A stretch of 63,844 bases of DNA from Alphaproteobacteria bacterium (GCA_051885355.1 JBJEXC010000011.1:1-63844); one strand, 5' to 3'. Positions 10,944 through 63,844 are shown, counted from the first letter of the stretch. The notes: a model not told the origin generated them from the letters alone. Translations and numbers: made by a program.

Positions 10944-12881
<1,938 letters not shown>

Positions 12882-16169: not shown

Positions 16170-16175
16170 ATCACA

Positions 16176-39808: not shown

Positions 39809-39885
39809 GCGCCATTAGCTCAATTGGATAGAGTATCTGACTACGGATCAGAAGGTTAGAGGTTCGACTCCTCTATGGCGCACCA
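39809..39885 (+). tRNA. tRNA-Arg (anticodon ACG), CCA encoded
   Basis: Acceptor GCGCCAT/ATGGCGC, anticodon loop CTACGGA, T arm AGAGG-TTCGACT-CCTCT. Confidence 0.9.
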
Positions 39886-42183: not shown

Positions 42184-42452
42184 TTCAATTCCTCTTTCAC
42201 AAAAGAATATATCACACTTTTATCTCCCCGGTCAATCTTTATCATTGCATTTCATATTCTGCTCTGGTATTATAATTTTTAATATTTGTTATTTAACATA
42301 TATAATGTATTAGATTTTCTAACATTAATCTTTAGAGTATTATACAAGAAAGACAAAATTGCGTCAATCTGATTTTGAGTAAAGTCTTTTCTCGTTATTA
42401 AACTTTTAAATTTTTTTTAATAGTCTAGTCATATTTTTACCTCCTTTACTTA

Positions 42453-42480
42453 TAAAAAACTCCCCATCAGAACGATGGGG
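42453..42480 (-). terminator. Rho-independent terminator after the endolysin gene
   Basis: CCCCATC-N5-GATGGGG followed by a T run on the minus strand. Confidence 0.65.
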
Positions 42481-42485
42481 AAAGA

Positions 42486-42896
42486 TTATATTTCACTTAT
42501 GAAAAAGAAAAGTTCTTCAACCCGCCTTTTATATATACCTTTAAGTTTGGATTTAAAACCGAAATCCCATTCACGACAAATAGCCTCAAAATCTTTATTA
42601 ATAATAGCCTGCCTTAATTTAGATTTTTTAAACGCAGGACCACCAACATTATACACAAGTGATACAACGGCCTCCAATTGACGCCCTCTCAAATTCAAAT
42701 CAGAAATATATGGCATCACTTCACAATCAATCCATTTAGAAAGAAGTATCTCAGCCCTCTCCTCTGTAATACTCATTCCTTCATAAACAGGCACACCATC
42801 AACACTTGTATTTCCATAACCAATAGTCCAAACACCAGCCGGACATTTATAGGCAACAAGTAAGCACCCTTCATACTTTTTTATCAAAGAATTCAT
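42486..42896 (-). CDS. Phage-type lysozyme (GH24 endolysin)
   Basis: KKYEGC...AYKCPAGVWTIGYGNT contains the catalytic Glu and the TIGYG motif. The ATGA start overlaps the upstream lipoprotein stop. Confidence 0.85.
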   Translation of the reverse strand: MNSLIKKYEGCLLVAYKCPAGVWTIGYGNTSVDGVPVYEGMSITEERAEILLSKWIDCEVMPYISDLNLRGRQLEAVVSLVYNVGGPAFKKSKLRQAIINKDFEAICREWDFGFKSKLKGIYKRRVEELFFFISEI

Positions 42897-43123
42897 TTGC
42901 ACTCACTCATATAAATTTCATAATAAATATTAAGATGACGAGCCGTTTCCAAAGTATCCTGTCTGCTTGGAAGCATAGGTTCATATATGGCACAAAAACT
43001 ATCAATCTCGGTAGTGCAACTTGTCAGCACTAACACTATTAACACGAGATTTAATCTTAGTTTTCGTATTAACTTTTTTAAGAATTTTTTTAGTCTGCTT
43101 TGCTTTCTGTTTCGACACACCAT
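42893..43123 (-). CDS. Rz1/o-spanin-like lysis lipoprotein
   Basis: Basic N-region, lipobox LVLTSC, and a short mature part with conserved Cys (CAIYEPMLPSRQDTLETARHL...C). The start is embedded out of frame in the upstream ORF. Confidence 0.5.
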   Translation of the reverse strand: MVCRNRKQSRLKKFLKKLIRKLRLNLVLIVLVLTSCTTEIDSFCAIYEPMLPSRQDTLETARHLNIYYEIYMSECK

Positions 43124-46773: not shown

Positions 46774-47229
46774 ATGAAAAAACAGACTTTAATTAATACT
46801 ATTAAATTAAAAATAAATAAAAGTAGAAAAAATACTTTCTTACTTAAGGATTTTAATAACCTTATTGAAAAATACGATTATGATCAAGTTTTACGTGGCT
46901 TAAGAGGATTAGTTAAAGACGGTTTTCTTATTAAAATATCAAGGGGCATTTATGCAAAAACAAAAATTTTAAGTGACGGTTCAATATTACTTAATAAAGG
47001 AATAAATGAACTTGCAACTGAGGCTTTAAATAATCTTGGTATTAAAACTGGTCCTTCAAGTTATTCAATACAATACATAAATGGAGATACAACTCAAGTG
47101 CCAACTGGACGAGTAATTGCTGTTAATAAAAGGGTTAGAAGAAAAATCGGGTATAATGGCAATTACATAAAGTTTGAAAAAATAAATAAAACATATCTTA
47201 ACAATTTATATAATAATCAAAATAGGTAA
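46774..47229 (+). CDS. abiEi: AbiEi-family antitoxin/transcriptional regulator
   Basis: LRGLRGLVKDGFLIKISRGIYAK is the AbiEi winged-helix signature. It lies directly upstream of an AbiEii-type gene. Confidence 0.8.
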   Translation: MKKQTLINTIKLKINKSRKNTFLLKDFNNLIEKYDYDQVLRGLRGLVKDGFLIKISRGIYAKTKILSDGSILLNKGINELATEALNNLGIKTGPSSYSIQYINGDTTQVPTGRVIAVNKRVRRKIGYNGNYIKFEKINKTYLNNLYNNQNR

Positions 47230-47234
47230 ACAAA

Positions 47235-48131
47235 ATGCTTCCACAAAATGAAATATTTGAAAAAATTGCACAAGATAAAGGTTGTAATATTGCATTTCCA
47301 ATAAAAGAAAACTTCCTTTTACAAGTAATAAAACAGTTTGTAGAAAATCTTGAATTACCAAATGGGTATAAATTTATTTTTGGTGGTGGAACAAGTCTTG
47401 TCTGTGCTTATGATGAACTTACAAAACGTTTTAGTGAAGATGCTGATTTCCGTATCGTACCAAAACCTAAACATACGGAAGATATAAGAAATCAACTTAA
47501 ACAAATTGCAGATAATTTAAAGGGATTTAAGTTATCAAATCGTAAAGATGATAGAAACATGATTACATTTTCATTTGAGGCTACAGATTTTAATATTCCT
47601 TCACATGAAGCAATTAAACCAGATATTAAAATGGAAGTATTTTTCACAAATAATTTATTTTATGAACCAAAAGAAAAAGAACTTATATCCTTTTATAATA
47701 AGTATGCAGGATTACCTTCTGAAACTAAAGTATTGTGTGTTTCTCTTGAAGATACAACTATTGATAAAATAAGCACATTACTATGGAGAATTGCATCAAA
47801 CAAAACTGAAACTCCTAAATATAATAAACCTGATATAAGACATTTGCATGATTTAGCTTATTTATATCCTAAGTTAAATATTGATGATAAATTCAAAAGT
47901 TATGTTTTACAAGTTGTAAATCAAGATATAAAGGAAAGATTAAAAAGTGATAAAACTTTCAATGAAGTTGTAAATGAAGTTTTATTAGAGTTAAAAACAA
48001 ATAAAACATATAAAAATGACTTTAAAACATATGTTGAAAATATGTCTTATGAAAAAACAGATAACCAATTAACTTTTGAAAAAGTATTAGAAAGTTTTGA
48101 GAAATTGATTTCGAAAATAGTTAGTATTTAA
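47235..48131 (+). CDS. abiEii: AbiEii/AbiGii-family nucleotidyltransferase toxin (DUF1814)
   Basis: FGGGTSLVCAY...RFSEDADF nucleotidyltransferase motif. 298 aa. Confidence 0.85.
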   Translation: MLPQNEIFEKIAQDKGCNIAFPIKENFLLQVIKQFVENLELPNGYKFIFGGGTSLVCAYDELTKRFSEDADFRIVPKPKHTEDIRNQLKQIADNLKGFKLSNRKDDRNMITFSFEATDFNIPSHEAIKPDIKMEVFFTNNLFYEPKEKELISFYNKYAGLPSETKVLCVSLEDTTIDKISTLLWRIASNKTETPKYNKPDIRHLHDLAYLYPKLNIDDKFKSYVLQVVNQDIKERLKSDKTFNEVVNEVLLELKTNKTYKNDFKTYVENMSYEKTDNQLTFEKVLESFEKLISKIVSI

Positions 48132-50883: not shown

Positions 50884-52563
50884 ATGAAAAAGGTATTTTT
50901 AGTTATTTTTGTATTTTGTGCGAGGGTGGTATTTTCGCAAACTCCTGAGCAGATTCAACGTTCACAACAGCAATTAATTGATGCAGGATTTAAGAGGCAG
51001 GAGTTAGAGCGTGCGATCAGCAAACCGTCCACTCAACAACCACAACAAAGTGAGGAAACTGCACCTCAAAAATCATCGCATTGCGTTCAAATCAACAGCA
51101 TTGAATTTGATGGAAATACAAAACTTTCCACCCACAAAATCAACAAACTTTCAAAACCTTTTCTTAATAAATGCCTGACGGTGGAGGAGATAAACAAACT
51201 TCTTAACACTATCACAAACGCCTATATTGACAAGGGTTTTATCACAAGCGGGGCTTACCTTAAAACTCCGCAAACCAAAACCAAAGACGGCATTTTGCAA
51301 ATCAAAATCATAGAGGGGACTATTGAAAAAATTAATGGGTTAAAGGAGGCGGAACGCATCTCCGCATTTCCAAATTTGCTTGGTAAAATTCTAAATCTTC
51401 GTGATATAGAGCAAGGGCTTGACCAGATGAATCGCCTTTCTTCCAACCACGCAACTATGGAAATAACCGCATCCGAAAATGCAAACGGAGCAAGCCAAAT
51501 CGTGATTAAAAACACCCCTGAAAGTCGCGTTTCCTATAACACTTACACCGACAATCTCGGCTCCAAATCCACGGGTCAATACAGGGCTGGTGTCAACTTC
51601 GGCATTGACAATATGTTGGGCGTCAACGACCAATTAAACATAGGCTACACAAACTCACTTACCGAACATTACGGTGATAAAAATTCACACTCCGCAAGCA
51701 TAGGTTTTTCTGTGCCATTCGGGTATTGGACCTTCACAAACAACACCTCCTACTCCTACTATAAAACCAATGTAAAACTTCCGATAAGCAGGGAAAAATT
51801 ATACTCCTTCGGCGACAGCTGGACTGACAATTTTTCCGTGGAACGTTTGCTTGCCAGAGGGCAAAAGTATAAGGTTTCCGCATTGGTCGGATTATCATAC
51901 AAGGAAAACGATAACTACACAAAGGTCCTTGACATACTCACAAAAAACGAGGTATCAAGCAGGCATCTTTCAAACATAGAATACGCCTTGCCAACGACAA
52001 TTTATTTTGACCGAGGCGTCATATTCGCAAAGCCATCTTTTGTGAACAGAGTAAAACTTTTCGGGAGTTTAGAGGACGATGGAACCTTCCAACAAAAGGC
52101 TCAATTTGAGGCATACAAACTTTACCTTTACACAGGTTTCAATTTTGGTTTTGTGAATTTGGCAACCACCTTTGACGGTCAATACAGCCCTGATGAACTT
52201 TTCTCCTCCGACGGATTTTATATTGGAAGTGAAGCATCGGTCAGAGGTTTTGCTAACGAAGGTTTAACCGGGGACAGTGGCTTTTACATAAGGAACGATT
52301 TGAAGTTTAATTTGGCGGATATTTTTAAAAGTCAGAATGTGTTTTTGAGAGATTTTAGCCCAAGCATTTTCTTTGATTACGGTTTTGTAAAAACCAATAA
52401 CGATGATGAAAAATCGGAGCTTTCAAGTATGGGTGCAAAAATAAATTACAGATATAAGATAGTGGATTTTTCCACCACCTACGCCCACCCGTTGAAAAAA
52501 GAAACTGAAATGTCCGGCACCCCCGAAACCTACTTCACGATTTCAATCAATGGAAGGTTTTAG
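50884..52563 (+). CDS. ShlB/FhaC/HecB-family two-partner-secretion outer-membrane transporter (TpsB)
   Basis: Signal peptide, POTRA-type region (VQINSIEFDGNTKLS...ITNAYIDKGFITSGAYL...ILQIKIIEGTIEKI), a beta-barrel-type C-terminal half and a terminal F. Confidence 0.9.
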   Translation: MKKVFLVIFVFCARVVFSQTPEQIQRSQQQLIDAGFKRQELERAISKPSTQQPQQSEETAPQKSSHCVQINSIEFDGNTKLSTHKINKLSKPFLNKCLTVEEINKLLNTITNAYIDKGFITSGAYLKTPQTKTKDGILQIKIIEGTIEKINGLKEAERISAFPNLLGKILNLRDIEQGLDQMNRLSSNHATMEITASENANGASQIVIKNTPESRVSYNTYTDNLGSKSTGQYRAGVNFGIDNMLGVNDQLNIGYTNSLTEHYGDKNSHSASIGFSVPFGYWTFTNNTSYSYYKTNVKLPISREKLYSFGDSWTDNFSVERLLARGQKYKVSALVGLSYKENDNYTKVLDILTKNEVSSRHLSNIEYALPTTIYFDRGVIFAKPSFVNRVKLFGSLEDDGTFQQKAQFEAYKLYLYTGFNFGFVNLATTFDGQYSPDELFSSDGFYIGSEASVRGFANEGLTGDSGFYIRNDLKFNLADIFKSQNVFLRDFSPSIFFDYGFVKTNNDDEKSELSSMGAKINYRYKIVDFSTTYAHPLKKETEMSGTPETYFTISINGRF

Positions 52564-52565
52564 AA

Positions 52566-52627
52566 GCATTTACACTTGATGTGAAAGTGAAGAGGAGGAT
52601 AAGGATATAGGTGAGGATGTTAGTCAT
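52566..52627 (-). pseudogene. Stand-alone remnant of the cassette leader (MTNILTYILILLFTFTSSVNAS), no toxin body
   Basis: A sixth copy of the conserved leader block. Homology stops 3-7 nt from the tpsB stop codon. Confidence 0.7.
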
Positions 52628-52637
52628 TTTTCTATTC

Positions 52638-53132
52638 TTACAATTTAAAAATAATATAACTTTCATTATATACGAATATTTTTTCTAATATCATATCAAT
52701 ATTATTGATATTTATTTTTACTAAAAATTCTTTTATAAAACACAGAGCATCAAATTCATTTAATTTATATTTAATTCTACAATCTTTAACAACATCACAC
52801 AGATTTATTGAACGGATTTTTAATTCTTCCTCTAATAATTCAATTAAATCTCTTTCATTCAAATCATTATAAACAAAATGTAAATGATTAAAATTACATA
52901 AAGATAAATCTATATTTTTCCACAATTTTTGTAAAAAAATATCTCTAGGGATAATAAATTCTTTACCATTTTCCTGAGTTATTATATCCAGTAAAAGTTC
53001 TCTAAAATTTATTGAATATTTAAAATTCACATACTTTCCCTGATGAAAATATATTTCATTTGCCATAGTCAAAATTTCTTGTTTTTCATTTAACAATTTA
53101 ATAAACTGCAAAATAATTTCATTTTCTGTCAT
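52638..53132 (-). CDS. Immunity-like small protein (164 aa)
   Basis: Second small ORF after toxin ORF 53586-54596. AAGGAAA Shine-Dalgarno; no motif recognised. Confidence 0.5.
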   Translation of the reverse strand: MTENEIILQFIKLLNEKQEILTMANEIYFHQGKYVNFKYSINFRELLLDIITQENGKEFIIPRDIFLQKLWKNIDLSLCNFNHLHFVYNDLNERDLIELLEEELKIRSINLCDVVKDCRIKYKLNEFDALCFIKEFLVKININNIDMILEKIFVYNESYIIFKL

Positions 53133-53181
53133 ATTTTATTTCCTTACTTATATCCACTATTTCTACTTACTACAAAATTAA

Positions 53182-53466
53182 TTAAATATTATCAAGTAAA
53201 TCTTTTAAATCAATGACATCTTCTTCAATTATAAAACTCCTATTTAAATTATCCAAAAATTCTAACCCAAATTTTAAGGATTCTGGATTTATAAAAATTC
53301 TGTAATTAGAATCATTTATACCTGTAAAATCTGTTAACAAATAAATATTTTTACCATTTATATTGCACATTTTTAACGGAATTTTATGAGAAAAATACCA
53401 ATCTTTTAAATGGGATTCTGGTAATTTTTCTTCTTGCTCTTTTATAAATTCTTCAATATTTTCCAT
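53182..53466 (-). CDS. Immunity-like small protein (94 aa)
   Basis: Starts 9 nt after the stop of the frameshift-restored toxin frame (TAA at 53476-53478). Confidence 0.5.
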   Translation of the reverse strand: MENIEEFIKEQEEKLPESHLKDWYFSHKIPLKMCNINGKNIYLLTDFTGINDSNYRIFINPESLKFGLEFLDNLNRSFIIEEDVIDLKDLLDNI

Positions 53467-53585
53467 TTTCTATCCTTACTTTTTTATAGTATCTGTTGTG
53501 TATATAGGACCTGATTTATAAGTAGCTTTACCATTTTCAAAAATTTCCACATGTGTATGAGGAGTACTATGAGGATGAGGATTAT

Positions 53586-54596
53586 TTAAATCAAATCTAA
53601 CCTTTTTAGTAATATTACTTCTTGACTCATAAAAACAGTATCTCCTGATTTATTTTTTATTACCTTAACGTTATTTCCTAAAAATTCTTCTATATCATTA
53701 GCAATTTTATCAATCTTCTTAGAGTTTATACCAGAGTTACCACTCTTCGCTCCAACCTCTTCCATTGTAGTCATATTTTTATTAGATGCAACATTTGTTT
53801 TCATTGACGAGTATAAACCATATACGCCTATACTCATATTAACTGTATTACCTGCCATATCCCAGGTCATATCTGAATTATTCATATACTGACCTGAGAA
53901 GTTCTCATAATAACCATATTCATTTTTTCCCTGATATAACATATAGCCATCTTCTGCAAACCCTGTTAAACCCATTGATGTATAGCCAATACCTGAAACT
54001 AAATTACTACCACCAACAGTAAAACCTGAAGATACAAGACCTAATCCATTCTTTGCAGTAGAATACATCAACTGATTTTTATTTACTTTTCCATTTTCTG
54101 TATAATACATTCCATTACTATCTGGACCAGTTTTCAAACTTGCTATATTACTTCCTAAATTTTGAGCACTTTTACCTGCAGTATATGCTGTCCAAGCCCA
54201 CATTCCTAGTTTTACTGCTCCTATCACAAGAGGAGGAATATTATCCCTATTCTCTACCCTACTCCAATCTATCGTATTCCCTATTACATAAGATGAATTG
54301 TTATCCACGCTCCAATTACCCAAACTGGTATCTTTTCCGTTTATCCATAGACTGTCGGTATATGCTCCTATGAAGTTATTACCAAGATACTTTGCGAAAT
54401 CTTCATTTGAGCCATATATTGCATGACCTACTTCATGACCAAATACTCCCAATCCTTTTTCTGTATTTCCATTTATATATAAATCATTTAGGTATATATC
54501 GTGGGTATCTTTATCGTGGTGTTGTATATAGCAAGCGTTTACACTTGATGTGAAAGAGAAAAGGAGGATAAGGATATAGGTGAGGAAGTTAGTCAT
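53586..54596 (-). CDS. Leader-bearing polymorphic toxin cassette T5 (HExxH module + variable C-terminus; apparently frameshifted near the 3' end)
   Basis: Leader MTNFLTYILILLFSFTSSVNAC, then HDKDTHDIY...FGHEVGHAIYGS...WSRVENRDN, then a unique region. A second frame continues to 53476. Confidence 0.7.
   Translation of the reverse strand: MTNFLTYILILLFSFTSSVNACYIQHHDKDTHDIYLNDLYINGNTEKGLGVFGHEVGHAIYGSNEDFAKYLGNNFIGAYTDSLWINGKDTSLGNWSVDNNSSYVIGNTIDWSRVENRDNIPPLVIGAVKLGMWAWTAYTAGKSAQNLGSNIASLKTGPDSNGMYYTENGKVNKNQLMYSTAKNGLGLVSSGFTVGGSNLVSGIGYTSMGLTGFAEDGYMLYQGKNEYGYYENFSGQYMNNSDMTWDMAGNTVNMSIGVYGLYSSMKTNVASNKNMTTMEEVGAKSGNSGINSKKIDKIANDIEEFLGNNVKVIKNKSGDTVFMSQEVILLKRLDLI
54248..54551. repeat. 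304-bp perfect direct repeat, copy 1 (copy 2 at 55838-56141)
   Basis: Every 10-mer block was checked by eye at a constant offset of 1590 bp. Confidence 0.9.
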
Positions 54597-55161
54597 TTTT
54601 TAGAAGTAATTCATTTATATCCAAATTTAATTTTTTTAATAAAATATCTTCATTATCATAAAATAATTTATCAATTAAATTATCTTTTTTTAATTCATTT
54701 AAAACATATATTAAAAAACCTACTATTGTTATAGTATTTAATTTAAAATTATTTATCCCATCATTTAAAATAGTATTTAAGTTTATTTTTAAATTTTTAT
54801 CCCTTATATCTTTAAATAAATATATATATTCTTTAATACTAATTCCTAAAACAGAACTATACTGGTTAATATTTATTTTTACAAAATACCTCCAATAATT
54901 TAATAAATTCAATATATTGCGAAGTGTATTATTCATTAATTGAGTATTAACAATTCTATTTTCTAATTCAGCATCCCCAAATTCTATATCTATAATAGAA
55001 ATCAAAGAGTTAACCTCATAAACAAACTCTTTTTCTGTTTCATTTATATTATCTATATTAAAATAATATTGAAAAATATCAGATAAACTATGTTGTTTAT
55101 TAAGAATAAAATTATACAAATTATTCATTTGATCTATAATATATTTTGATTCTATATACAT
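54589..55161 (-). CDS. Immunity-like protein (190 aa)
   Basis: Starts 8 nt after the T4 stop. Its last codons AAT GAC TAA overlap the T5 leader ATG. Confidence 0.55.
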   Translation of the reverse strand: MYIESKYIIDQMNNLYNFILNKQHSLSDIFQYYFNIDNINETEKEFVYEVNSLISIIDIEFGDAELENRIVNTQLMNNTLRNILNLLNYWRYFVKININQYSSVLGISIKEYIYLFKDIRDKNLKINLNTILNDGINNFKLNTITIVGFLIYVLNELKKDNLIDKLFYDNEDILLKKLNLDINELLLKND

Positions 55162-55169
55162 TTCTTTTC

Positions 55170-56186
55170 CTATTTCAAATTAGTTATTTTTCTACCTGGA
55201 ATAACTGTAATAACAGAACCTTCATTATTTGTTACTACATTTACTTTATTAATTTTATCATAATAATATATTTTTGTAGCAGAACTATTAATTTCTTTAG
55301 TTCCCGAAGAAATAGTATTTTCTACAACAGATGGAGAAAGACCTCTACCTTGCATTTGATCTAATGCATGTCCTGTATAATATCTGTCTAATATTGTCGT
55401 AGGTTTATTTGTCCCAGATTGTATAGATATAGGATTATTTATTACTCCAACAATTTCATGTGTTCCTGTTTTAGGTAATGGTTTTGCAACCTTTTCCGCT
55501 TCTCCAAGATATTTTAAATCTGTTCCTATACCACTAATATGATCTATGTCTAAAGCATCATCAACTTTACTCATTAACTTTGAACCAACCTTACTTACTG
55601 CTTTTCCTCCTACATATAATCCCCCTCCAATGATTAAATCTGTCGCTCCTTCTTTTATGTTCCCTCCAGCTGTATATATCTTACCGTCTACTATCGGATC
55701 CTTATATTCTGTCTTACCCTTATATCCTTTCCCCTTTATCCATGCATATATCTTCCTTGCACTATCTTGGATTGAGTATACCTCTCCTGCTATTACTAAA
55801 GCTGTTATTGCCATACTAATAGGTTCAAAGTTGTCTTTATTCTCTACCCTACTCCAATCTATCGTATTCCCTATTACATAAGATGAATTGTTATCCACGC
55901 TCCAATTACCCAAACTGGTATCTTTTCCGTTTATCCATAGACTGTCGGTATATGCTCCTATGAAGTTATTACCAAGATACTTTGCGAAATCTTCATTTGA
56001 GCCATATATTGCATGACCTACTTCATGACCAAATACTCCCAATCCTTTTTCTGTATTTCCATTTATATATAAATCATTTAGGTATATATCGTGGGTATCT
56101 TTATCGTGGTGTTGTATATAGCAAGCGTTTACACTTGATGTAAAAGTGAAGAGTAGGATAAGTATATAGGTTAGAAAGTTAGTCAT
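55170..56186 (-). CDS. Leader-bearing polymorphic toxin cassette T4 (HExxH module, shared middle domain, RNase-like tip)
   Basis: Same leader and HExxH module (304 bp identical to T5), then VENKDN. The middle domain is shared with T0 and T1. The tip YYTGHALDQMQGRGLSPSVVENTI...GSVITVIPG resembles DUF4258/BECR-type RNase toxins. Confidence 0.7.
   Translation of the reverse strand: MTNFLTYILILLFTFTSSVNACYIQHHDKDTHDIYLNDLYINGNTEKGLGVFGHEVGHAIYGSNEDFAKYLGNNFIGAYTDSLWINGKDTSLGNWSVDNNSSYVIGNTIDWSRVENKDNFEPISMAITALVIAGEVYSIQDSARKIYAWIKGKGYKGKTEYKDPIVDGKIYTAGGNIKEGATDLIIGGGLYVGGKAVSKVGSKLMSKVDDALDIDHISGIGTDLKYLGEAEKVAKPLPKTGTHEIVGVINNPISIQSGTNKPTTILDRYYTGHALDQMQGRGLSPSVVENTISSGTKEINSSATKIYYYDKINKVNVVTNNEGSVITVIPGRKITNLK
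55838..56141. repeat. 304-bp perfect direct repeat, copy 2
   Basis: See 54248-54551. Confidence 0.9.
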
Positions 56187-56568
56187 TTAAGTTTAAATTA
56201 TATATACTATATTTATCATATAATGTTAAAGAAATTAAATATCTATCATTTCTAATAGAAGAAACAAAAGTTAAATATTTTTTCATCTCATCTATAGCTT
56301 CATTTATGCAAACATTATAATTCTTTTTTGCTATATCACACTTATATTCCCAATGGGTGAATCCTGTAACATCATAATCATATATATTTTCATCAATTTT
56401 TGTGAAAATTTCACCAAAAGCAATCAACAATTTATGTTCTTTTATAAAATCTATAATATCATCTACAATATCAATATAAAAACCTAGTTTATTACTATGA
56501 TAAGGTAATAGTGGATATACTTTATCTTGTAAATTTTCTTTTAAAAAAATTCTATATTCAACCTGCAT
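56179..56568 (-). CDS. Immunity-like protein (129 aa)
   Basis: AGGAG Shine-Dalgarno 9 nt after the T3 stop. Ends ...LND with a stop overlapping the T4 leader ATG. Confidence 0.55.
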   Translation of the reverse strand: MQVEYRIFLKENLQDKVYPLLPYHSNKLGFYIDIVDDIIDFIKEHKLLIAFGEIFTKIDENIYDYDVTGFTHWEYKCDIAKKNYNVCINEAIDEMKKYLTFVSSIRNDRYLISLTLYDKYSIYNLNLND

Positions 56569-56577
56569 TTTTATCTC

Positions 56578-58038
56578 CTAACGTAAATTTTTAGTTATTT
56601 TATTAGCTTCTTTAAATAATCTATGTGTTATAGTATTATTTCTAGGATCTAACACATATTCAAAAAATCCTTTATTCCCATTTTTAGTACCTTCTATAAT
56701 AGCTTTATAATATATATTATTATCTCCTCCTGTAAATTTAACCCAATCTTTTGGTTTTAATAATTTATCTATTAAAATAGGAAAATCATGATTATCACCT
56801 TTCCCAATTTTACTTAATACAGAGGAACTATATTTAAAATCATTAGCATCACCTTTAAATAACCCTCTAATACCTCCCTTAATACCTTTCACAAATGGTG
56901 CTATTCCCATTAATAAATTACCACCAATATCCATTGTACCATATATCTTTAAATTTGTCTCTAAATCTTCTGATGATATATGTTCTCCACTTGGTCTCAT
57001 ATATTCTCCATTACCTATATATCCTACATCAGCTATCGCTTTTGCCTCACCTCCTTTGTATGCTCCTACAGCTGCAATAATTACTCCTCCCACAAAAGTT
57101 ATCGTAACAGGCTCTAAATTATCCCTGTTCTCTACCTTACTCCAATCCATCGTATTCCCTATTACATAAGATGAATTGTTATCCACGCTCCAATTACCTA
57201 GACTGGTATCTTGTCCGTTTATCCATAGGCCGTCGGTATAGGCTCCTGTGAAGTTATTACCCAGATACTTTACGAAATCTTCATCTGAGCCGTATATTGC
57301 ATGACCTACTTCATGACCGAATACTTCCAATCCCTTTTCTGTATTTCCATTTATATACAAGTCATTTAGGTATATATCGTGGGTATCTTTATCGTGGGAA
57401 CCTCCTGTGATAACTCCTACCACTTTGTTGGTATTATCATTTACACCAAGTTCCATACCAGCAAAAGTTTTAACATTACCGATTTTTATATAATCGTCAT
57501 CGGTTTCATCTTTACCTGTATTATAGATACCAGCAATTTCATTTTTAAACATAGCAAGAGCTATATCTTTTTCTTCCACAGTTGCATCAATTTGACCAGA
57601 CAGAATCGCAACCGCTTCTTCACCACCGTTTGTATTCAATAGATTTGATATTGCAAGCTTAGATACTTCTTTGTATCTGATACCACTTAAAGCTTGGTTC
57701 AAAGTGACATCAGTCATAACTGCGTCATACAAATTAGTTGCTATATTTTCAATGAAACTCTCAGATACCTTGAAATCCTTCAATATCTTCTTTCTCCCCT
57801 CCCCACTAAACACCCTATTGTCTATAGTCATACTTCCATCCAAAGCACCAGTGATTTTATCCTTTGTAATTTCTTGAGCTCTTTCTACATCCCTGTTTAG
57901 TCCCTCTAAATCAGAGTTAGTTTCCCCTCCTACTGTTATATTACCTGGGCCTATTGTTGCGTGAGGAAGATAACAAGCACTTACACTTGATGTAAAAGTG
58001 AAGAATAGGATAAGGATATAGGTGAGAAAGTTAGTCAT
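56578..58038 (-). CDS. Leader-bearing polymorphic toxin cassette T3 (pre-toxin block + HExxH module + unique tip)
   Basis: Leader, then HATIGPGNITVGGETNSDLEGLNRDVERAQEITKDKITGALDGSMTIDNRVFSGEG, a linker, then HDKDTHDIY...HEVGH...VENRDN and a unique 180-aa C-terminus. Confidence 0.75.
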   Translation of the reverse strand: MTNFLTYILILFFTFTSSVSACYLPHATIGPGNITVGGETNSDLEGLNRDVERAQEITKDKITGALDGSMTIDNRVFSGEGRKKILKDFKVSESFIENIATNLYDAVMTDVTLNQALSGIRYKEVSKLAISNLLNTNGGEEAVAILSGQIDATVEEKDIALAMFKNEIAGIYNTGKDETDDDYIKIGNVKTFAGMELGVNDNTNKVVGVITGGSHDKDTHDIYLNDLYINGNTEKGLEVFGHEVGHAIYGSDEDFVKYLGNNFTGAYTDGLWINGQDTSLGNWSVDNNSSYVIGNTMDWSKVENRDNLEPVTITFVGGVIIAAVGAYKGGEAKAIADVGYIGNGEYMRPSGEHISSEDLETNLKIYGTMDIGGNLLMGIAPFVKGIKGGIRGLFKGDANDFKYSSSVLSKIGKGDNHDFPILIDKLLKPKDWVKFTGGDNNIYYKAIIEGTKNGNKGFFEYVLDPRNNTITHRLFKEANKITKNLR

Positions 58039-58789
58039 TTTTCATCAAAACTGAAAATCTTATAATCAAATCAGAAAACAATAAAGATTTAAAATCTTTT
58101 TCATCATAAATCTCTATATTACAATCTGATATCAATGTATCTTTGGTTAAGGTATCAAAATAATTTTGTAATATTTGTTGCTTCTCTTTGTTTTCATTAC
58201 CAATAGGAATAAATTTAATTTTATAATCATTTATTATAATATCCCCTAAATATATATTTTCAATTTTTTTCAAATAAATCTTTGTATCATTAAAAACAGA
58301 CTTTGCCATATTGTCACTATATAAGGAATATATATTACTTTGCATTTGAGAAGTATTTTTTCCATGATAATCCAACATATTTTTCTTTCTTCTACAAGTC
58401 TGATTTCTACTATATGTCTTCCATTCTAAAACTTTATCAGAATTATCTACTTTAAATATTCCATTTTGATCAAAACTAAGTATACTATGCCCAGTTCCTA
58501 TTTTCAAATCTTCCTCACTAAAAGAAGTAATCAATTTTTTTCTACTTTTATCTTCATAAATAAAATATCTGATATCTCGTCTATCCTGTAAAGATATATT
58601 AGGATTATAATCAAGATTTAAAATATCACCTTTTTTAAAATACAATACATTATTATATTTGAAGTAAGGAATATAAACAAAAATTTCATCATAATATAAA
58701 TTTTTAATTACAACAGGAAAAACTGGATATACAATATGAAAACAAGCAGTTAATACCAACAAAATACACATTATAAATATTTTCTTCAT
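58031..58789 (-). CDS. Immunity-like lipoprotein (252 aa)
   Basis: Start at MKKIFIMCILLVLTACF (lipobox LTAC), 1 nt after the T2 stop. Ends ...KND overlapping the T3 leader ATG. The longer ORF-track start (58978) overlaps T2 and is rejected. Confidence 0.55.
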   Translation of the reverse strand: MKKIFIMCILLVLTACFHIVYPVFPVVIKNLYYDEIFVYIPYFKYNNVLYFKKGDILNLDYNPNISLQDRRDIRYFIYEDKSRKKLITSFSEEDLKIGTGHSILSFDQNGIFKVDNSDKVLEWKTYSRNQTCRRKKNMLDYHGKNTSQMQSNIYSLYSDNMAKSVFNDTKIYLKKIENIYLGDIIINDYKIKFIPIGNENKEKQQILQNYFDTLTKDTLISDCNIEIYDEKDFKSLLFSDLIIRFSVLMKND

Positions 58790-58790
58790 T

Positions 58791-59648
58791 TTAAATTCCC
58801 TTATATTTTTGATTTCCATATTTATCTGCATCGGCTTCAAATCTATTTTTTGATGTAAATGGATTATCCAATAAATACATAGGTAAAAATAGTGGCCCCC
58901 ACTGTCTATACTGTTGAACATGTCTATTTTCATGCTCTCTCCATATTGTCCAATCATCTTCTGTAGGAACCTCAACAAATAATCCTAACTCCCTTGCCTC
59001 TTTTACTCTTTCTGAATATTCATATGTACGATTAGCAATATCTATACCATCTCCATAATCATCAACATATCCAAAATAATTTACAACTTGTCCAAATGTT
59101 GTAGCCCAATCATTTAAATTTTCCTCTCCAAATAAACCATTTAACATATGAAACAAAGGATTTCCTATTATATTATGAATTCTATTTTCTTCATCATATT
59201 CATGTCTAGCTCCTAATAAAACTCCGATAGCTCCAATTGTAGCACCTATCATAGTATTTGGCAAGTTCCAAATATCTCCCAAAACTGTTAATGTATTCCC
59301 TACTAAATTCGTATGATCCTCTATTATACTCCTCCAGCCCTCTCCGCTAAATACCCTATTGTCTATAGTCATACTTCCATCCAAAGCACCAGTGATTTTA
59401 TCCTTTGTAATTTCTTGAGCTCTTTCTACATCCCTGTTTAGTCCCTCTAAATCAGAGTTAGTTTCCCCTCCTACTGTTATATTACCTGAGCCTATTGTAG
59501 CGTGAGTTATTTGTTCCTTTTCCGAACCCTTGTCCTTCATAGTTATAGTTGTTGAACCGTTTGGATGGATGGAGTAGTAATAGCAAGCATTTACACTTGA
59601 TGTGAAAGAGAAAATAAGAATGAGGATATAGGTAAGGAAGTTAATCAT
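58791..59648 (-). CDS. Leader-bearing polymorphic toxin cassette T2 (pre-toxin block + HExxH-containing tip)
   Basis: Leader MINFLTYILILIFSFTSSVNAC, a pre-toxin block 135 bp identical to T3, and a tip with NLPNTMIGATIGAIGVLLG and REHENRHVQQYRQWGPLF. Confidence 0.75.
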   Translation of the reverse strand: MINFLTYILILIFSFTSSVNACYYYSIHPNGSTTITMKDKGSEKEQITHATIGSGNITVGGETNSDLEGLNRDVERAQEITKDKITGALDGSMTIDNRVFSGEGWRSIIEDHTNLVGNTLTVLGDIWNLPNTMIGATIGAIGVLLGARHEYDEENRIHNIIGNPLFHMLNGLFGEENLNDWATTFGQVVNYFGYVDDYGDGIDIANRTYEYSERVKEARELGLFVEVPTEDDWTIWREHENRHVQQYRQWGPLFLPMYLLDNPFTSKNRFEADADKYGNQKYKGI

Positions 59649-60218
59649 TTATTTTAAGAAAAAATCTTTGTAATTATTATAAATATTTATAATCCCAACA
59701 TATGGATTAAAATCTAAATTTACTTCTACTTCTTTTTTTAAGTTCTTATAAAAATTATAAAAATTATTTATATATTGCTTATAAGTATTTCCAAAAATAC
59801 CCTTTAAATTTTCTTCTTTTCCAATCCATATATGATAATAGTCATTATCATTAAAAATCATTACTTTTTCATCACTTGATATTAAAACGAAATAAAGAAA
59901 ATGAAGAGTTAAATATATATCAGAAGGTAATATATCTGGATAGTCATTAAGATATATCATTTCATTATCTCCCAATAAAGATATTATTGCTTTTTGATTA
60001 ATAAAATATCTATCAAATAATAATCTTTCACTATCTTCATCAAAAATATTTTCAACAAAAGGTATAATTTTCAAATTATTTTGAATAAGATATTTTCTAT
60101 CCAATTCCCAATAGGAATTTTCTGAAGTTTTACATTCAATTGTTATATTTTTACACAAATTTAAAATATATTTACTTTTTTTCTTAAAAAATATATCTCT
60201 AATATCTAATAACATCAT
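59649..60218 (-). CDS. Immunity-like protein (189 aa)
   Basis: AGGAGAA Shine-Dalgarno 5 nt after the T1 stop. Its stop directly abuts the T2 ATG. Confidence 0.55.
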   Translation of the reverse strand: MMLLDIRDIFFKKKSKYILNLCKNITIECKTSENSYWELDRKYLIQNNLKIIPFVENIFDEDSERLLFDRYFINQKAIISLLGDNEMIYLNDYPDILPSDIYLTLHFLYFVLISSDEKVMIFNDNDYYHIWIGKEENLKGIFGNTYKQYINNFYNFYKNLKKEVEVNLDFNPYVGIINIYNNYKDFFLK

Positions 60219-60223
60219 TTCTC

Positions 60224-61252
60224 CTATTTATATCTAATATCAATATACTTTCCCAAATTATAATCATATACTTCCAAAGTATCAACCCCTTTCAAGGAAG
60301 TACTTTTATGTAAATTTATAATTTCTCCATCTCTTGTACTTCCAATTATAGCATTATTTTTATGGATAGGTTCAACAACATTTATAGAGCTAAAATCGTC
60401 TAAAGCATTTCCTCCCTTCTCATAATTAATAACTTTTTTAGGACTATTTTGAATTGTTGATAGTTTAGAATCCTTCAAAATATTATCAAAACTATTAACT
60501 TTATCAACTGGTTTTAAATCAGTTCCTATACCACTAATATGATCTATATCTAATGCATCATCTACCTTACTCATTAACTTAGAACCAACCTTATTTACAG
60601 CTTTTCCTCCTACATATAATCCCCCTCCAATGATTAAATCTGTCGCTCCTTCCTTTAAATTACCTTCAGCTGTATATATTTTCCCATTTATTGGATCAAC
60701 ATAAGTTGTTTTTCCTTTATATCCTTCTCCATCAAACCATGCATATATTTTCCTTGCACTATCTTGGATTGAGTAAATACTTGCTGCAATGGCTAATCCA
60801 GTCAATATAAAACCATCTCCTCTACCCTCTCCTGTCATAGTATTATGCAAATCCGATATAAGTCCAAGACTTCCCTCCCTTATCGTATCCTCTCCGCTAT
60901 GAGATTCTAACCACTCATCTCCTCCCATTCCATTAGTATTCTCGTTACCATAGTTCTTTAGTCCGAAGATTCCTGCTCCTGTATCTCCTCTATTCTTCGC
61001 AGTAATCTCATTTGCATTATGTTCTTCAAAGTTTGTAGTTTCGTGATACAACGCATTCATCAAAGCTTTTGGATCGGACATATCTATATTTGCCATATTA
61101 AGCGTTATATTTTTTACTTCGCTGTCGTTACTTTGATATGCAAAACCTATTATATTTCCATTTTCTGTTGTTGTATGTGGAACATAGTAGACATTTACAC
61201 TTGATGTAAATGTGAAGAGGAGAATGAGGATATAGGTGAGGAGTTTAGTCAT
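60224..61252 (-). CDS. Leader-bearing polymorphic toxin cassette T1
   Basis: Leader MTKLLTYILILLFTFTSSVNVYY, then about 650 bp identical to the partial ORF at the window edge, then a unique 110-aa tip. Confidence 0.75.
   Translation of the reverse strand: MTKLLTYILILLFTFTSSVNVYYVPHTTTENGNIIGFAYQSNDSEVKNITLNMANIDMSDPKALMNALYHETTNFEEHNANEITAKNRGDTGAGIFGLKNYGNENTNGMGGDEWLESHSGEDTIREGSLGLISDLHNTMTGEGRGDGFILTGLAIAASIYSIQDSARKIYAWFDGEGYKGKTTYVDPINGKIYTAEGNLKEGATDLIIGGGLYVGGKAVNKVGSKLMSKVDDALDIDHISGIGTDLKPVDKVNSFDNILKDSKLSTIQNSPKKVINYEKGGNALDDFSSINVVEPIHKNNAIIGSTRDGEIINLHKSTSLKGVDTLEVYDYNLGKYIDIRYK
60513..61161. repeat. About 650-bp direct repeat, copy 1 (identical by eye to 62808-63457)
   Basis: Line-by-line comparison of T1 and T0 DNA. 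Confidence 0.85.
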
Positions 61253-61691
61253 TTATTTTTTTTAATGTAAAAACACAATCTTTTATATTCATTGTTTTAT
61301 ATATAATATTATTATTTAATTTCACAGAGTATTTCACTATATCATTCGGATATTTATCATGAGTTAAAAAATTATTATAAGAAGAATATAAATCATTAAA
61401 TAATAGTTTACATTTTTTATCACAATATAATTCAACTTTATAACTATTAAGAGGATAATCAACAAAACAATATTTTAATGATTTATGAAAATTATCAAGA
61501 ACTGTTATATTCTTAGCCCATATATCTTCATCAAGAAAATCATCTTCCCAACGCATAATTGGAAAAGATTTTTCATTAACAAAATCTAATATTTTTTTAT
61601 AATTATACACTAAATCATTAGGATTTAAAATATCTTGCACTTTATCTTTAATATTGTAAGTTTTATCTTTTTTTTTATTAATACCAAACAT
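61245..61691 (-). CDS. Immunity-like protein (148 aa)
   Basis: ATG preceded by AGGTGATTAAT. Ends ...IND overlapping the T1 leader ATG. Confidence 0.5.
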   Translation of the reverse strand: MFGINKKKDKTYNIKDKVQDILNPNDLVYNYKKILDFVNEKSFPIMRWEDDFLDEDIWAKNITVLDNFHKSLKYCFVDYPLNSYKVELYCDKKCKLLFNDLYSSYNNFLTHDKYPNDIVKYSVKLNNNIIYKTMNIKDCVFTLKKIND

Positions 61692-61700
61692 ATTAATCAC

Positions 61701-62051
61701 CTAATCAAATTCTACAATATCATTAAAATCTCTAACAACATATAAATAATGTTCATTATTATTTCTTATTAAAACGGCTTCTGGTCCATTAAAACCTGTA
61801 TCACTCATATCAATCTCAATATAATTATTATTGTTTAAGATAAGTTTTATATAAGTATTTTCTTTTTCTTCTATTTCTATTATGCTTTTCCCAATTAAAT
61901 TTTCCAATCTATCATTAAATATGTATGTATTAACTATTTCAATATTAAATAAATTATTCAAACCCAAAGTAATATCCTTATCAATTCCAATATAAATGCC
62001 AACAATACTTTGATTTAACAATTTGTCTTTTAATTCACTTTTTATATACAT
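61701..62051 (-). CDS. Immunity-like protein (116 aa), paralog of 62111-62461
   Basis: Shares a C-terminal pattern with its neighbour (...PEA..L.....N..YL....FN[DE]I..F). Confidence 0.5.
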   Translation of the reverse strand: MYIKSELKDKLLNQSIVGIYIGIDKDITLGLNNLFNIEIVNTYIFNDRLENLIGKSIIEIEEKENTYIKLILNNNNYIEIDMSDTGFNGPEAVLIRNNNEHYLYVVRDFNDIVEFD

Positions 62052-62110
62052 TTTTATCTCCTTTATTTTATTTAATAGGAAAATTACATTAGATTTCCTG
62101 ATTTTAACTT

Positions 62111-62461
62111 CTACCTAAAATCATATATTTCATTAAAATTATTGTAAATAAGATAAATATTATTTCCCTCAGATTTTAAAGAAAAGGCTTCTGGGGTATC
62201 ACAAGAATCGGCATCTAATCCAATAAAGAATTCCAAAGAGTTATCTAAAACAAATTTAATTTTTTCATCCAAACAAGCCTGTATTTTTATTATGTTATGA
62301 TTTTTACATTCTTCTATACCAAAAGGGAAATAACACTTGTTATTGACTGAAAGATAAATATCTTTATCAAATTCAAAATCATAAACAGAAATATTATCTT
62401 TTATAGAGATCAATCGTTTATTTAAAAGGATATTATTTAAACGTTTTTCAATTTCTAACAT
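62111..62461 (-). CDS. Immunity-like protein (116 aa), cognate position for the edge toxin ORF
   Basis: The ATG lies 1 nt after the stop of 62463-63844 and is preceded by AGGTGAT. Confidence 0.55.
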   Translation of the reverse strand: MLEIEKRLNNILLNKRLISIKDNISVYDFEFDKDIYLSVNNKCYFPFGIEECKNHNIIKIQACLDEKIKFVLDNSLEFFIGLDADSCDTPEAFSLKSEGNNIYLIYNNFNEIYDFR

Positions 62462-62462
62462 A

Positions 62463-63844
62463 TTAATCACCTATTTTTATAGAAAAATGCCCTTTCATTC
62501 CTTCATCTATTTGTTTTAATGTATAAGGATCAATACCTGCGTTACTTTTTGGTAAAGAATACTTTACATACCCATTAGGATATGCAGGTATTTTACCATT
62601 ATTTTTAGCTTCCACAGGATTCATAATTCTCATATCAACTTGTGTTCCTTTTATTGTACCACCTTCTAATATAACGCCTTTCCCATTATTTGCAAGGTTT
62701 AGTGTATAATTTTCTGGAACAGGAAATACTTGACCTGAAGAATCCACAAAGAAATTTGTTCCTGTCTTAGGTAATGGTTTTGCGACCTTCTCCGCTTCTC
62801 CAAGATATTTTAAATCAGTTCCTATACCACTAATATGATCTATATCTAATGCATCATCTACCTTACTCATTAACTTAGAACCAACCTTATTTACAGCTTT
62901 TCCTCCTACATATAATCCCCCTCCAATGATTAAATCTGTCGCTCCTTCCTTTAAATTACCTTCAGCTGTATATATTTTCCCATTTATTGGATCAACATAA
63001 GTTGTTTTTCCTTTATATCCTTCTCCATCAAACCATGCATATATTTTCCTTGCACTATCTTGGATTGAGTAAATACTTGCTGCAATGGCTAATCCAGTCA
63101 ATATAAAACCATCTCCTCTACCCTCTCCTGTCATAGTATTATGCAAATCCGATATAAGTCCAAGACTTCCCTCCCTTATCGTATCCTCTCCGCTATGAGA
63201 TTCTAACCACTCATCTCCTCCCATTCCATTAGTATTCTCGTTACCATAGTTCTTTAGTCCGAAGATTCCTGCTCCTGTATCTCCTCTATTCTTCGCAGTA
63301 ATCTCATTTGCATTATGTTCTTCAAAGTTTGTAGTTTCGTGATACAACGCATTCATCAAAGCTTTTGGATCGGACATATCTATATTTGCCATATTAAGCG
63401 TTATATTTTTTACTTCGCTGTCGTTACTTTGATATGCAAAACCTATTATATTTCCATCTACATTTGCAAGTTTTAAATCTCCACTAAATCCGCCACCTTC
63501 TGCTACAAAATCAGCAACTTGTTGTAATATGGCTTGAGCTTCTGGAGAATCAAAATCAGTCATTCCGTTAAGAGCCACAACTAAATCCCTACGTTTCTCC
63601 TGCAACTCTGTCATCTGCCTGTCTTGCTTTACATAGTCTGCAATCGTATCTATCAAATCCTTCGTTTTATCAGTAATTGCATTTTCTATCGCCTTTACTA
63701 CTATATTGTTTCTCAACCCACTTCCTATTTGAACAAGGTTATCCCCTATCTCCTCATGTTGCTTAACTATCTCCGCTCTTCCCTCTCCACTAAATACCCT
63801 ATTGTCTATAGTCATACTTCCATCCAAAGCACCAGTGATTTTAT
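62463..63844 (-). CDS. C-terminal part of a toxin-bearing exoprotein T0 (5' end outside the window)
   Basis: The frame is open to the window edge, where it reads KITGALDGSMTIDNRVFSGEG, identical to T2 and T3. It then has a linker, a degenerate zincin-like module (LYHETTNFEEH), the shared middle domain and a unique tip. Confidence 0.8.
   Translation of the reverse strand, partial: KITGALDGSMTIDNRVFSGEGRAEIVKQHEEIGDNLVQIGSGLRNNIVVKAIENAITDKTKDLIDTIADYVKQDRQMTELQEKRRDLVVALNGMTDFDSPEAQAILQQVADFVAEGGGFSGDLKLANVDGNIIGFAYQSNDSEVKNITLNMANIDMSDPKALMNALYHETTNFEEHNANEITAKNRGDTGAGIFGLKNYGNENTNGMGGDEWLESHSGEDTIREGSLGLISDLHNTMTGEGRGDGFILTGLAIAASIYSIQDSARKIYAWFDGEGYKGKTTYVDPINGKIYTAEGNLKEGATDLIIGGGLYVGGKAVNKVGSKLMSKVDDALDIDHISGIGTDLKYLGEAEKVAKPLPKTGTNFFVDSSGQVFPVPENYTLNLANNGKGVILEGGTIKGTQVDMRIMNPVEAKNNGKIPAYPNGYVKYSLPKSNAGIDPYTLKQIDEGMKGHFSIKIGD
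62808..63457. repeat. About 650-bp direct repeat, copy 2
   Basis: See 60513-61161. Confidence 0.85.

Follow-up and report, generated by a model that had tools for sequence, protein, structure and literature searches.

Orphan toxin/immunity modules are commonly regarded as silent spares that are of use mainly for their immunity genes. Whether this also applies where such modules open with a conserved start of their own is the question raised by an array at positions 52,566 to 63,844 of a contig from an Alphaproteobacteria bacterium (GCA_051885355.1, JBJEXC010000011.1). The window, by which we mean the whole stretch of 63,844 nucleotides that was analysed, holds six toxin open reading frames (ORFs) on the minus strand, T1 to T6, each with small partner ORFs behind it (I1a to I6b), and the transporter gene tpsB lies next to the array (Table 1). 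The system is of a known kind, an orphan toxin-immunity array of the two-partner secretion (TPS) and contact-dependent growth inhibition (CDI) type in a low-GC, gut-associated alphaproteobacterium. What would be new is that, in this uncultured gut clade, the orphans are complete genes and bear a selected copy of the signal peptide of the transporter. Our reading, to which we assign a probability of roughly 0.75, is that they encode pre-toxins which are translated and exported by Sec, with a signal peptide captured from tpsB.

The leader of the orphan genes

Each of T2 to T6 opens with ATG and about 23 codons, MTNFLTYILILLFTFTSSVNACY, with the consensus MT(N/K)(F/L)LTYILIL(L/F)F(T/S)FTSSVNACY. 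In DNA this is an element of about 69 nt in which conservation begins at the ATG (nhmmer E 1e-15 to 1e-18 for T2 to T6). Related loci, designated here by L numbers, were found via relatives of the window's TpsB and via T4 homologues, and the same peptide forms the N-terminus of TpsB (MTKLLTYIFILFFAFTSLVNA-QAPSD...) in L002, L003, L087 and L089, where this tpsB lies on the same strand as the array, as well as in five metagenome contigs. Loci in which TpsB begins with it include L108, L129, L132 and L137. Since the leader is the N-terminus of a protein located in the outer membrane, TpsB biology suggests that it is a Sec signal peptide, and the copied peptide would make each orphan a complete gene. 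The start of each orphan overlaps the stop of the preceding immunity ORF by 8 nt within ATGACTAA, just as the start of tpsB does in relatives. The sequence-only reading of this DNA had noted neither the tpsB-derived nature of this N-terminus nor a truncated copy that abuts the window's tpsB.

The leader was scanned for with a DNA-level profile, independent of gene calling. In the window and seven related loci 29 copies were found, four on tpsB, two as terminal remnants and 23 in frame on ORFs of 200-553 aa, with none out of frame. A DNA-pattern scan of metagenomes returned 61 stretches, eight with real leader copies, two weak matches and otherwise chance matches, and added three further in-frame orphans, which brings the orphan-borne copies in frame to 26/26 (window and nine related loci). 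The fusions fall into about 12 junction types with varying entry points into the TpsA C-terminal region. The two weak matches, in L096 and L140 (E 6.5e-3), covered the first 27 leader positions only and were discounted.

The proportion of differing synonymous sites (pS) in the leader codons was 0.38 among the window copies and 0.64 among all 24 copies, as compared to 0.059 and 0.13 for nonsynonymous sites (pN), giving an overall pN/pS of 0.15-0.20. Orphans of the same junction class must have diverged while the leader was already on the orphan, and within these classes 61 synonymous and 32 nonsynonymous differences were counted (ratio 0.17, binomial p about 5e-17, for pairs that are not fully independent). 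The copies are 76-91% identical in DNA, versus 97-100% for the neighbouring modules. Judged by these codon comparisons, the leader is conserved as a peptide and not as DNA, under apparent purifying selection. A function as lipoprotein signal was considered and rejected by inspection, since VNAC is off the lipobox consensus, the cysteine is replaced by glycine or valine in several copies and TpsB has VNA-Q; predicted cleavage at a signal peptidase I site is more likely.

Capture of a TpsB N-terminus is also seen in a second lineage. One orphan and one remnant in L085 begin with the first 45 residues of that locus' own TpsB, mature residues included, and in L090 the signal peptides of a 726-aa Fil_haemagg_2 protein and of the TpsB beside it are about 50% identical. 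This confirms the apparent direction of capture, from tpsB to orphan. Two other orphans of L085 have a broken leader mini-ORF, MKKLSTISLIALFSTPALVI followed by a stop (relics at 9938-10003 and 13814-13879), and then directly the ATG of a second signal peptide, MLKKIFAFLLILFACVALSW, unrelated to the leader and fused to the pretoxin block. Among 76 TpsB loci, 6 had extra copies of the TpsB N-terminus within the same locus, and these belonged without exception to two related lineages. In the literature searched, orphans that carry the transporter's signal peptide were not described. In Nitratidesulfovibrio liaohensis (L019, 3913-4359) a 148-aa ORF just upstream of tpsB is 33% identical over 54 aa to the TpsB N-terminus, and this may be an unrelated partial duplication. 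L086 holds an orphan-only island between rplI and dnaB (7843-15110), with four leader-bearing toxin genes and their immunity genes; it ends in a truncated 69-aa leader ORF, and there is no tpsA or tpsB within 10 kb.

The tpsB of the window has its own, different signal peptide, MKKVFLVIFVFCARVVFSQ, and is convergent with the array. Its GC fraction is 0.404, versus 0.31 for the tpsB of relatives and 0.285 for the array, and its product is 57-59% identical to the relatives' TpsB, where the TpsA cores are 61-64% identical between each other; in another clade TpsB is more conserved than TpsA. Directly at the tpsB stop codon lies a seventh, truncated leader copy (Table 1), which is, from its sequence and position, the relic of an earlier co-directional leader-tpsB gene. 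In the sister strain L081 the junction is the same and the leader has decayed, and tpsB is convergent with the array in both L081 and L082, where the arrangement recurs. The presence of the junction in the window and in L081 makes the arrangement ancestral to both strains and not an assembly artefact. The native co-directional tpsB body thus appears to have been replaced by a foreign, convergent tpsB, which we favour over a simple inversion because of the different signal peptide, the 40% GC, the lower identity and the lack of flanking inverted repeats. An invertible tpsB segment was rejected on the same grounds, with no meaningful inverted repeats flanking tpsB. In L081 the convergent tpsB (13314-14992, minus strand) is split in two ORFs of 336 and 223 aa; this may be a frameshift or a sequencing error, and the transporter may be inactive there.

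The array and its relatives

The contig ends at 63844 inside T1, and the TPS-domain part of tpsA is absent from the window. A look-up with the exact I1a protein, meant to extend the contig, gave no match. The N-proximal blocks of T1 to T4 have their homologues in full-length TpsA of related metagenome-assembled genomes (MAGs), within its C-terminal 300-500 residues, and share with the TpsA of these loci the pretoxin pattern HATIG.G.I.V..G.DL.GLNRD....QEITKD..TG.LD....IDNRVF..EGR. The closest TpsB relatives (57-59% identity) come from human (Hadza) gut and rumen MAGs that are labelled uncultured Alphaproteobacteria or proteobacterium. A TpsA of 2096-2416 aa with TPS and Fil_haemagg_2 domains heads the locus in L002, L003, L081 and L089, and the order on one strand is tpsA, immunity-like ORFs, one to five shorter toxin ORFs with small ORFs of their own, and then tpsB. 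An A, I, (extra ORF), B order is also known from Burkholderia-type loci (PMC3415462). Our results support that the window is the distal part of such a locus, in which the order A-I-(orphan-I)n-B would be ancestral. T1 is homologous to the C-terminus of the L003 TpsA and to an L081 orphan (4464-5930), and could be the 3' end either of a full-length tpsA/cdiA or of a long leader-bearing orphan.

L081 is separated from the window by a dS of about 0.25-0.5 and differs in the main tip, in the orphans and in their order; the tip of T1 is an orphan tip there. The C-terminal polymorphism among relatives, whose absence had been named as a reason to reject the toxin-array idea, is thus present. Homology to the TpsA C-terminus, tips and partners that travel together and tip differences between sister strains support an array of the CdiA-CT/CdiI type. 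The sequence-only reading had left the choice between this, Rhs-CT and MafB-type organisation, and only the TpsA/CdiA type holds, as hallmark domains of the other two are missing: no window ORF had an RHS_repeat match or a DUF1020 domain (Pfam), and there was no PAAR or VgrG context and no mafA partner among the window ORFs.

Table 1. Features of the array and its transporter gene in the window
Feature	Position	Strand	Description
T1	62463..63844	-	459 codons, 3' part, open at contig end; pretoxin block, HETT module, linker/entry module, T1 tip 62466-62756
I1a, I1b, I1c	61245..62461	-	Three small ORFs after T1: I1a 62111-62461, I1b 61701-62051, I1c 61245-61700
T2	60224..61252	-	Orphan, 342 aa; leader, HETT module, linker/entry module, unassigned tip
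I2	59649..60218	-	Candidate immunity gene for T2, 189 aa
T3	58791..59648	-	Orphan, 285 aa; leader, pretoxin block, tip with HENRH (HExxH) motif
I3	58031..58789	-	Lipoprotein-type immunity protein (predicted), MKKIFIMCILLVLTAC...
T4	56578..58038	-	Orphan, 486 aa; leader, pretoxin block, helical region, HEVGH module, VENRDN boundary, entry-like module, toxin end
I4	56179..56568	-	Candidate immunity gene for T4, 129 aa
T5	55170..56186	-	Orphan; leader, HEVGH module, VENKDN boundary, linker/entry module SIQDSARKIYAW...DIDHISGIGTDLK, DUF4258-like tip
I5	54589..55161	-	Candidate immunity gene for T5, 190 aa; stop inside the ATGACTAA that begins T6
T6	53476..54596 (uncorrected ORF stops 53586)	-	Orphan; leader, HEVGH module, VENRDN boundary, glycine-rich entry-like module, frameshifted toxin end
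I6a	53182..53466	-	Candidate immunity gene, T6 partner, 94 aa
I6b	52638..53132	-	Candidate immunity gene, 164 aa
Five leader copies, 69 nt each	54528..61252	-	T6 54528-54596, T5 56118-56186, T4 57970-58038, T3 59580-59648, T2 61184-61252
Seventh leader copy, truncated	52564..52627	-	MTNILTYILILLFTFTSSVNA, then SKTFH and stop; runs into the complement of the tpsB stop codon; nhmmer E 5.9e-17
tpsB	50884..52563	+	tpsB/cdiB-type Omp85 transporter, 559 aa; Pfam ShlB 6e-68, POTRA_2 3e-23, POTRA_3 1e-17

All six toxin ORFs were present in the ORF calls of the window where they had first been placed, except that the end given for T6 (53586) is the product of a frameshift near 53600. Once repaired, T6 reads on to 53476, 9 nt ahead of I6a, and its C-terminus (about 53476-53640) reads ...VRFDLNNPHPHSTPHTHVEIFENGK...; the repaired tip had no match in Pfam, NCBIfam or PDB. 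The frameshift could mark a pseudogene or a sequencing error. The idea that the ORFs share N-proximal blocks and end in unrelated C-termini was borne out. DNA repeats far above chance connect them: 650 nt at 100% identity between T1 and T2 (62808-63457 = 60512-61161), 349 nt at 98% between T5 and T6, 280-293 nt at 91-93% between T4 and either T5 or T6, 169 nt at 97% between T3 and T4 and 321 nt at 87% between T1 and T5, while the tips showed no relatedness to one another. The T1/T2 tract indicates a very recent duplication or gene conversion inside the array; an exact tract of this length is also a possible trap in short-read assembly. One to three densely packed small ORFs directly follow each toxin ORF, as had been proposed, with gaps of 1-9 nt to the first of them and the 8-nt overlap at the next toxin start. 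Across strains, comparison shows that modules recombine via long identical tracts and that tips swap between orphan and main positions and between strains with the immunity link kept. An integron-like cassette array was considered and rejected, as the boundary is a coding direct repeat, a scan for flanking inverted repeats gave none and there is no integrase in 40-51 kb.

The toxin ORFs are built from modules in the order pretoxin block ending DNRVFSGEG (in T4 HATIGPGNITVGG...LNRDVERAQEITKD...DNRVFSGEG), middle module, glycine-rich entry-like module and small toxin domain. The middle module is either of a HETT type (T1, T2) or of a zincin-like HEVGH type that ends W-S-(R/K)-VEN(R/K)DN (T4, T5, T6). 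The latter comprises about 95 residues with an HExxH motif just ahead of the VENRDN boundary (e.g. 55838-56110), and its role may be that of a peptidase in pre-toxin processing; in Pfam it has zincin hints at motif level and nothing more. Two boundaries recur, TIDNRVFSGEG and, VENN-like, W S(R/K) VEN(R/K)DN, and beyond each of them the sequences diverge. Three glycine-rich, partly hydrophobic modules were distinguished, one shared by T1, T2 and T5 (SIQDSARKIYAW...DIDHISGIGTDLK), a T4 type and a T6 type, and in other loci these are joined to other toxin ends, the T6 type recurring in L003 and L087. CdiA-CT regions have a two-part plan of an entry domain and a toxin domain. A glycine-rich module followed by a toxin end fits this plan, and by analogy we infer that these modules act in entry.

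The array had been described as an AT-rich block beside tpsB. This is correct for the pair (28.5% versus 40.4% GC), but the array is near the window mean of 30.1% and it is tpsB that stands out. The proposal that accessory DNA starts after tRNA-Arg (39809-39885) is not supported by an integrase or att repeat, neither of which was found. In the accessory stretch before tpsB a gene pair on the plus strand (46774-48131) looks like a type IV toxin-antitoxin or abortive-infection module; the second gene encodes an AbiEii nucleotidyltransferase toxin (Pfam 1e-25), and the first, a 151-aa ORF, is probably its AbiEi partner. Genes for a phage-type lysozyme and a low-molecular-weight phosphotyrosine phosphatase lie on the tpsB side in both strains (window 41713-42902, minus strand; L081 16240-18671). 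Farther away, about 3.7 kb (12879-16631) hold no ORF of at least 120 aa; a tRNA-Thr lies inside, the AT skew switches, and Rfam finds the tRNA only.

Tips and their partners

Four tip/partner pairs are linked, each in one or two other loci. The T1 tip is followed by I1a in L003 and by I1b and then I1a in L081, a T2-type tip by an I2 homologue in L089 (56%) and L086 (31%), a T4-type toxin end by an I4 homologue in L081 (95%) and L087 (65%), and a T5-type tip by an I5 homologue in L087, with a further I5 homologue in L001. The T2 tip is 81% identical to the tip of the L089 orphan. The partners had been thought mutually unrelated, which does not apply to I1a and I1b, distant paralogues (26% identity, E 2e-6) that, from their place behind the same tip, are the candidate partners of T1, and I3 turned out to be two fused genes. 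Its N-terminal half matches L081 12555-12929 (90%) and its C-terminal half L086 14534-14905 (86%), and in these loci the two lipoprotein immunity genes are separate. An I1c homologue follows a different toxin in L087, by which I1c is evidently an immunity gene without its toxin. Homologues of I6a (49%) and of the I6b N-terminus (55% over 64 aa) occur in L001, where ten small ORFs downstream of tpsB (6241-11539) form an immunity-only island with no toxin genes; five of the ten are homologues of I5, I1c, I6a, I6b and I4, and an I1a homologue lies apart, upstream of tpsB (1034-1378). These ORFs look like a bank of orphan immunity genes. All nine partner ORFs, I6b included, were scanned whole against Pfam and NCBIfam with nothing significant.

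Tips on the same scaffold in relatives carry colicin E5, phage-type lysozyme, VanY/M15, barnase-type RNase and M23 domains. The suggestion that the window may hold new toxin families finds support in the T1 tip, which has no match in Pfam, NCBIfam or PDB sequences. An exhaustive search gave 65 representative clusters of its family, in which the domain almost always sits at the extreme C-terminus of proteins of 103-2877 aa; the large ones carry RHS_repeat, TcdB_midN, SpvB, FG-GAP, DUF6443, LysM or PDZ domains. The AlphaFold2 (AF2) model of the tip, from a 26-sequence alignment, is all-beta (predicted local distance difference test, pLDDT, 91.4; predicted template modelling score, pTM, 0.82), and Foldseek found nothing significant for it in PDB (best E 1.4, TM at most 0.37) or BFVD. 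Residues G8, P14, G27, R43, M45, G54, Y59, G62, Y63 and H90 are invariant. The model supports a toxin domain family with a confidently predicted fold and no matching profile or structure.

The T5 tip, on the other hand, is DUF4258-like: it scores 23.5 bits against DUF4258 (PF14076; gathering threshold 25), and its homologues score 29.6 (L086, which passes) and 23.7 (L087). Scanned against Pfam and NCBIfam, the tips and the HEVGH and HETT modules together yielded this sub-threshold match and zincin hints at motif level, and nothing else. Relatives of the T3 tip occur in L002, on the main TpsA, and in L081, on an orphan, both followed by lipoprotein ORFs; the lipoprotein nature of the partner suggests that the target of T3 is probably periplasmic. 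PDB sequence searches with four tips and the T1-tip profile gave nothing below E 0.04, a homologue search with concatenated tips gave one match only, and the T4 toxin end searched alone gave no candidate. The AF2 model of whole T4 (mean pLDDT 50, 38-sequence alignment) was too poor for a fold search. Ratios of nonsynonymous to synonymous divergence (dN/dS) were 0.13-0.35 for orphan bodies (T4 0.18 versus the L081 orphan), which resembles the values of immunity genes (0.06-0.26, with I4 at 0.06, except the I3 N-terminal half at 0.58) and of tpsB (0.09).

Known systems and the role of the orphans

The closest likeness is to the orphan cdiA-CT/cdiI arrays of E. coli EC93/EC869, Yersinia and Dickeya (Poole et al. 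2011, PMC3150448). These also consist of stacked tpsA/cdiA 3' fragments with part of the pretoxin region and unrelated tips, each followed by its own immunity gene, which recombine with the main gene by homology and act as an immunity bank. Classical modules, however, 'generally lack translation initiation signals' and a signal sequence (PMC3150448), whereas T2 to T6 have ATG and a conserved Sec-type leader of 21-23 residues. Theirs also lie downstream of cdiBAI and not, as is ancestral here, between immunity gene and tpsB, and the boundaries here are DNRVFSGEG and VENRDN, with no Pfam-recognisable VENN. The tpsA-IORF-tpsC islands of Neisseria meningitidis (Arenas et al. 2013, PMC3848433) share truncated, repeated cassettes whose 5' part is homologous to the tpsA 3' region, an immunity IORF for each, and a recombination unit of cassette, IORF and 5' end of the next cassette. 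Many of those tpsC cassettes carry stops or frameshifts and they have no leader (PMC3848433); here the unit boundary is a tpsB-derived element coding for a signal peptide, and one of five window orphans (T6) is disrupted.

In Burkholderia bcpAIOB or 'Burkholderia-type' cdiAIB loci (Anderson et al. 2012, PMC3415462) A, I, an extra ORF and B follow on one strand, and the extra ORF just 5' of the transporter gene (BcpO, class I) has a signal sequence. BcpO differs in being a small conserved lipoprotein of 73-74 aa and not a toxin fragment, its signal sequence is not reported as a copy of that of BcpB, and descriptions of this position include no stacking of toxin cassettes. MafB/MafI of Neisseria (PMC4287609) combine a Sec signal peptide, an N-terminal region that is conserved and a C-terminal toxin that varies with a downstream immunity gene and alternative C-terminal cassettes, but in the window DUF1020 and mafA are absent, the conserved part is the C-terminal region of TpsA and a TpsB gene lies alongside. 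Rhs/YD-repeat toxins with orphan rhs-CT/rhsI share the logic of tip displacement, and the T1 tip family is found C-terminally on RHS-repeat proteins elsewhere; the window differs in having no RHS repeats and no PAAR or VgrG context.

Taken together, we infer that the orphans are translated, Sec-exported pre-toxins rather than silent fragments. Cassettes stacked ahead of tpsB would have captured the tpsB 5' end as a leader, translation of the orphans would be coupled to that of the immunity gene upstream, and Sec would export their products to the periplasm. In the ancestral order tpsB and the distal immunity genes lie downstream of the array; untranslated stretches would be polar there and toxin fragments in the cytoplasm harmful, and a start codon with an export signal would answer both. 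The main benefit may be unbroken translation along a long operon, by which distal immunity genes and the ancestral tpsB would be expressed, and export may keep harmful toxin fragments out of the cytoplasm. An independent toxic role of the orphans is possible. In the lineage of the window the original co-directional tpsB body would have been lost, with a GC-richer, convergent tpsB in its place that has a signal peptide and promoter region of its own, and with only the leader relic left behind.

Several points weigh against this reading. The evidence consists throughout of sequences of uncultured MAGs, and as the contig ends within T1, membership in a TPS locus rests on the relatives. The boundary motifs DNRVFSGEG and VENRDN are no more than VENN-like, and no window ORF matched PT-VENN or another pretoxin model in Pfam. 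The low pN/pS of the leader could partly stem from gene conversion by functional tpsB leaders, in addition to the incomplete independence of the pairs within junction classes. Some leaders of relatives are without the SSVNA cleavage region (e.g. MTNLLTYIFLFSFFSF-GFNIDL) and T6, as the sole disrupted one of the window's five orphans, is frameshifted, which means that not every orphan is a functional exported protein. Promoter and terminator scans gave counts equal to the shuffled expectation. We know of no route by which a periplasmic fragment without a TPS domain would reach a target cell.

A more conventional explanation is a silent reservoir, in which the orphans are untranslated spare tips beside expressed immunity genes and the leader is a recombination scar or a portable homology arm. 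Such a role is established for other orphan arrays (PMC3150448, PMC3848433), the leader flanks every cassette and could guide homologous recombination, and the T6 frameshift and the relatives' leaders without a cleavage region fit this as well. We nevertheless consider it unlikely, because the conservation is at the peptide level (pS 0.4-0.6, pN 0.06-0.13), the junctions, of about 12 independent types, are all in frame, and the leader DNA is less similar than the neighbouring modules; the orphan ATG with its start/stop overlap as in functional tpsB and the purifying selection on orphan bodies also speak against it. It is very unlikely that the orphans are autonomous Sec-dependent toxins, by MafB-like logic or as a 'mini-CdiA', that reach their targets via TpsB, vesicles or lysis with tpsA dispensable, since TpsB substrates without a TPS domain are not known in type Vb secretion, a full tpsA heads the same arrays in L002, L003, L081 and L089, and neither a DUF1020 domain nor a MafA partner is present. 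What speaks for it, besides the selected signal peptide, are the orphan-only island of L086, L085 with signal-peptide-bearing proteins of 365-600 aa, immunity genes and tpsB but no tpsA within 10 kb upstream, and L090, where the 726-aa protein with signal peptide and Fil_haemagg_2 stands directly before an immunity gene and tpsB, on a contig that starts only 410 nt upstream of it; loci without tpsA may, however, be decayed or split.

Distinctly unlikely, though not to the same degree, is a variant in which the leader-bearing ORFs form a distinct class of Sec-exported 'mini-CdiA' proteins without a TPS domain. These might be delivered by a new route (through action of TpsB on a C-terminal fragment in the periplasm, through vesicles or by outer-membrane exchange) or might re-enter the producer's cytoplasm via their entry modules, as a periplasm-routed addiction module that retains the immunity gene, with L085, L086 and L090 as the working form. 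We give next to no credence to a non-toxin explanation, by which the array consists of decaying adhesin or haemagglutinin fragments with unrelated small ORFs, or of a repeat assembly artefact. A metagenome-type contig with a 650-nt exact repeat and the lack of Pfam families for most tips and for any partner ORF would allow for this, but the same architecture was assembled independently in many samples, tips and partners are linked across loci, the ORFs are under purifying selection, the T1 tip family caps Rhs proteins and tips of relatives have known toxin domains.

The preferred reading, with orphans as Sec-exported pre-toxins, would mean that orphans are kept intact with a selected export signal across a clade of uncultured gut Alphaproteobacteria. 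The locus illustrates how cassettes may build up in A-I-B-ordered loci via capture of the tpsB 5' end, and the T1 tip points to a widespread toxin domain, also present on Rhs proteins, with a predicted fold unmatched among solved structures. If the orphans are translated and exported, orphan function in CDI-type systems would need re-examination, be it in operon expression, in safe disposal or as a second delivery route.

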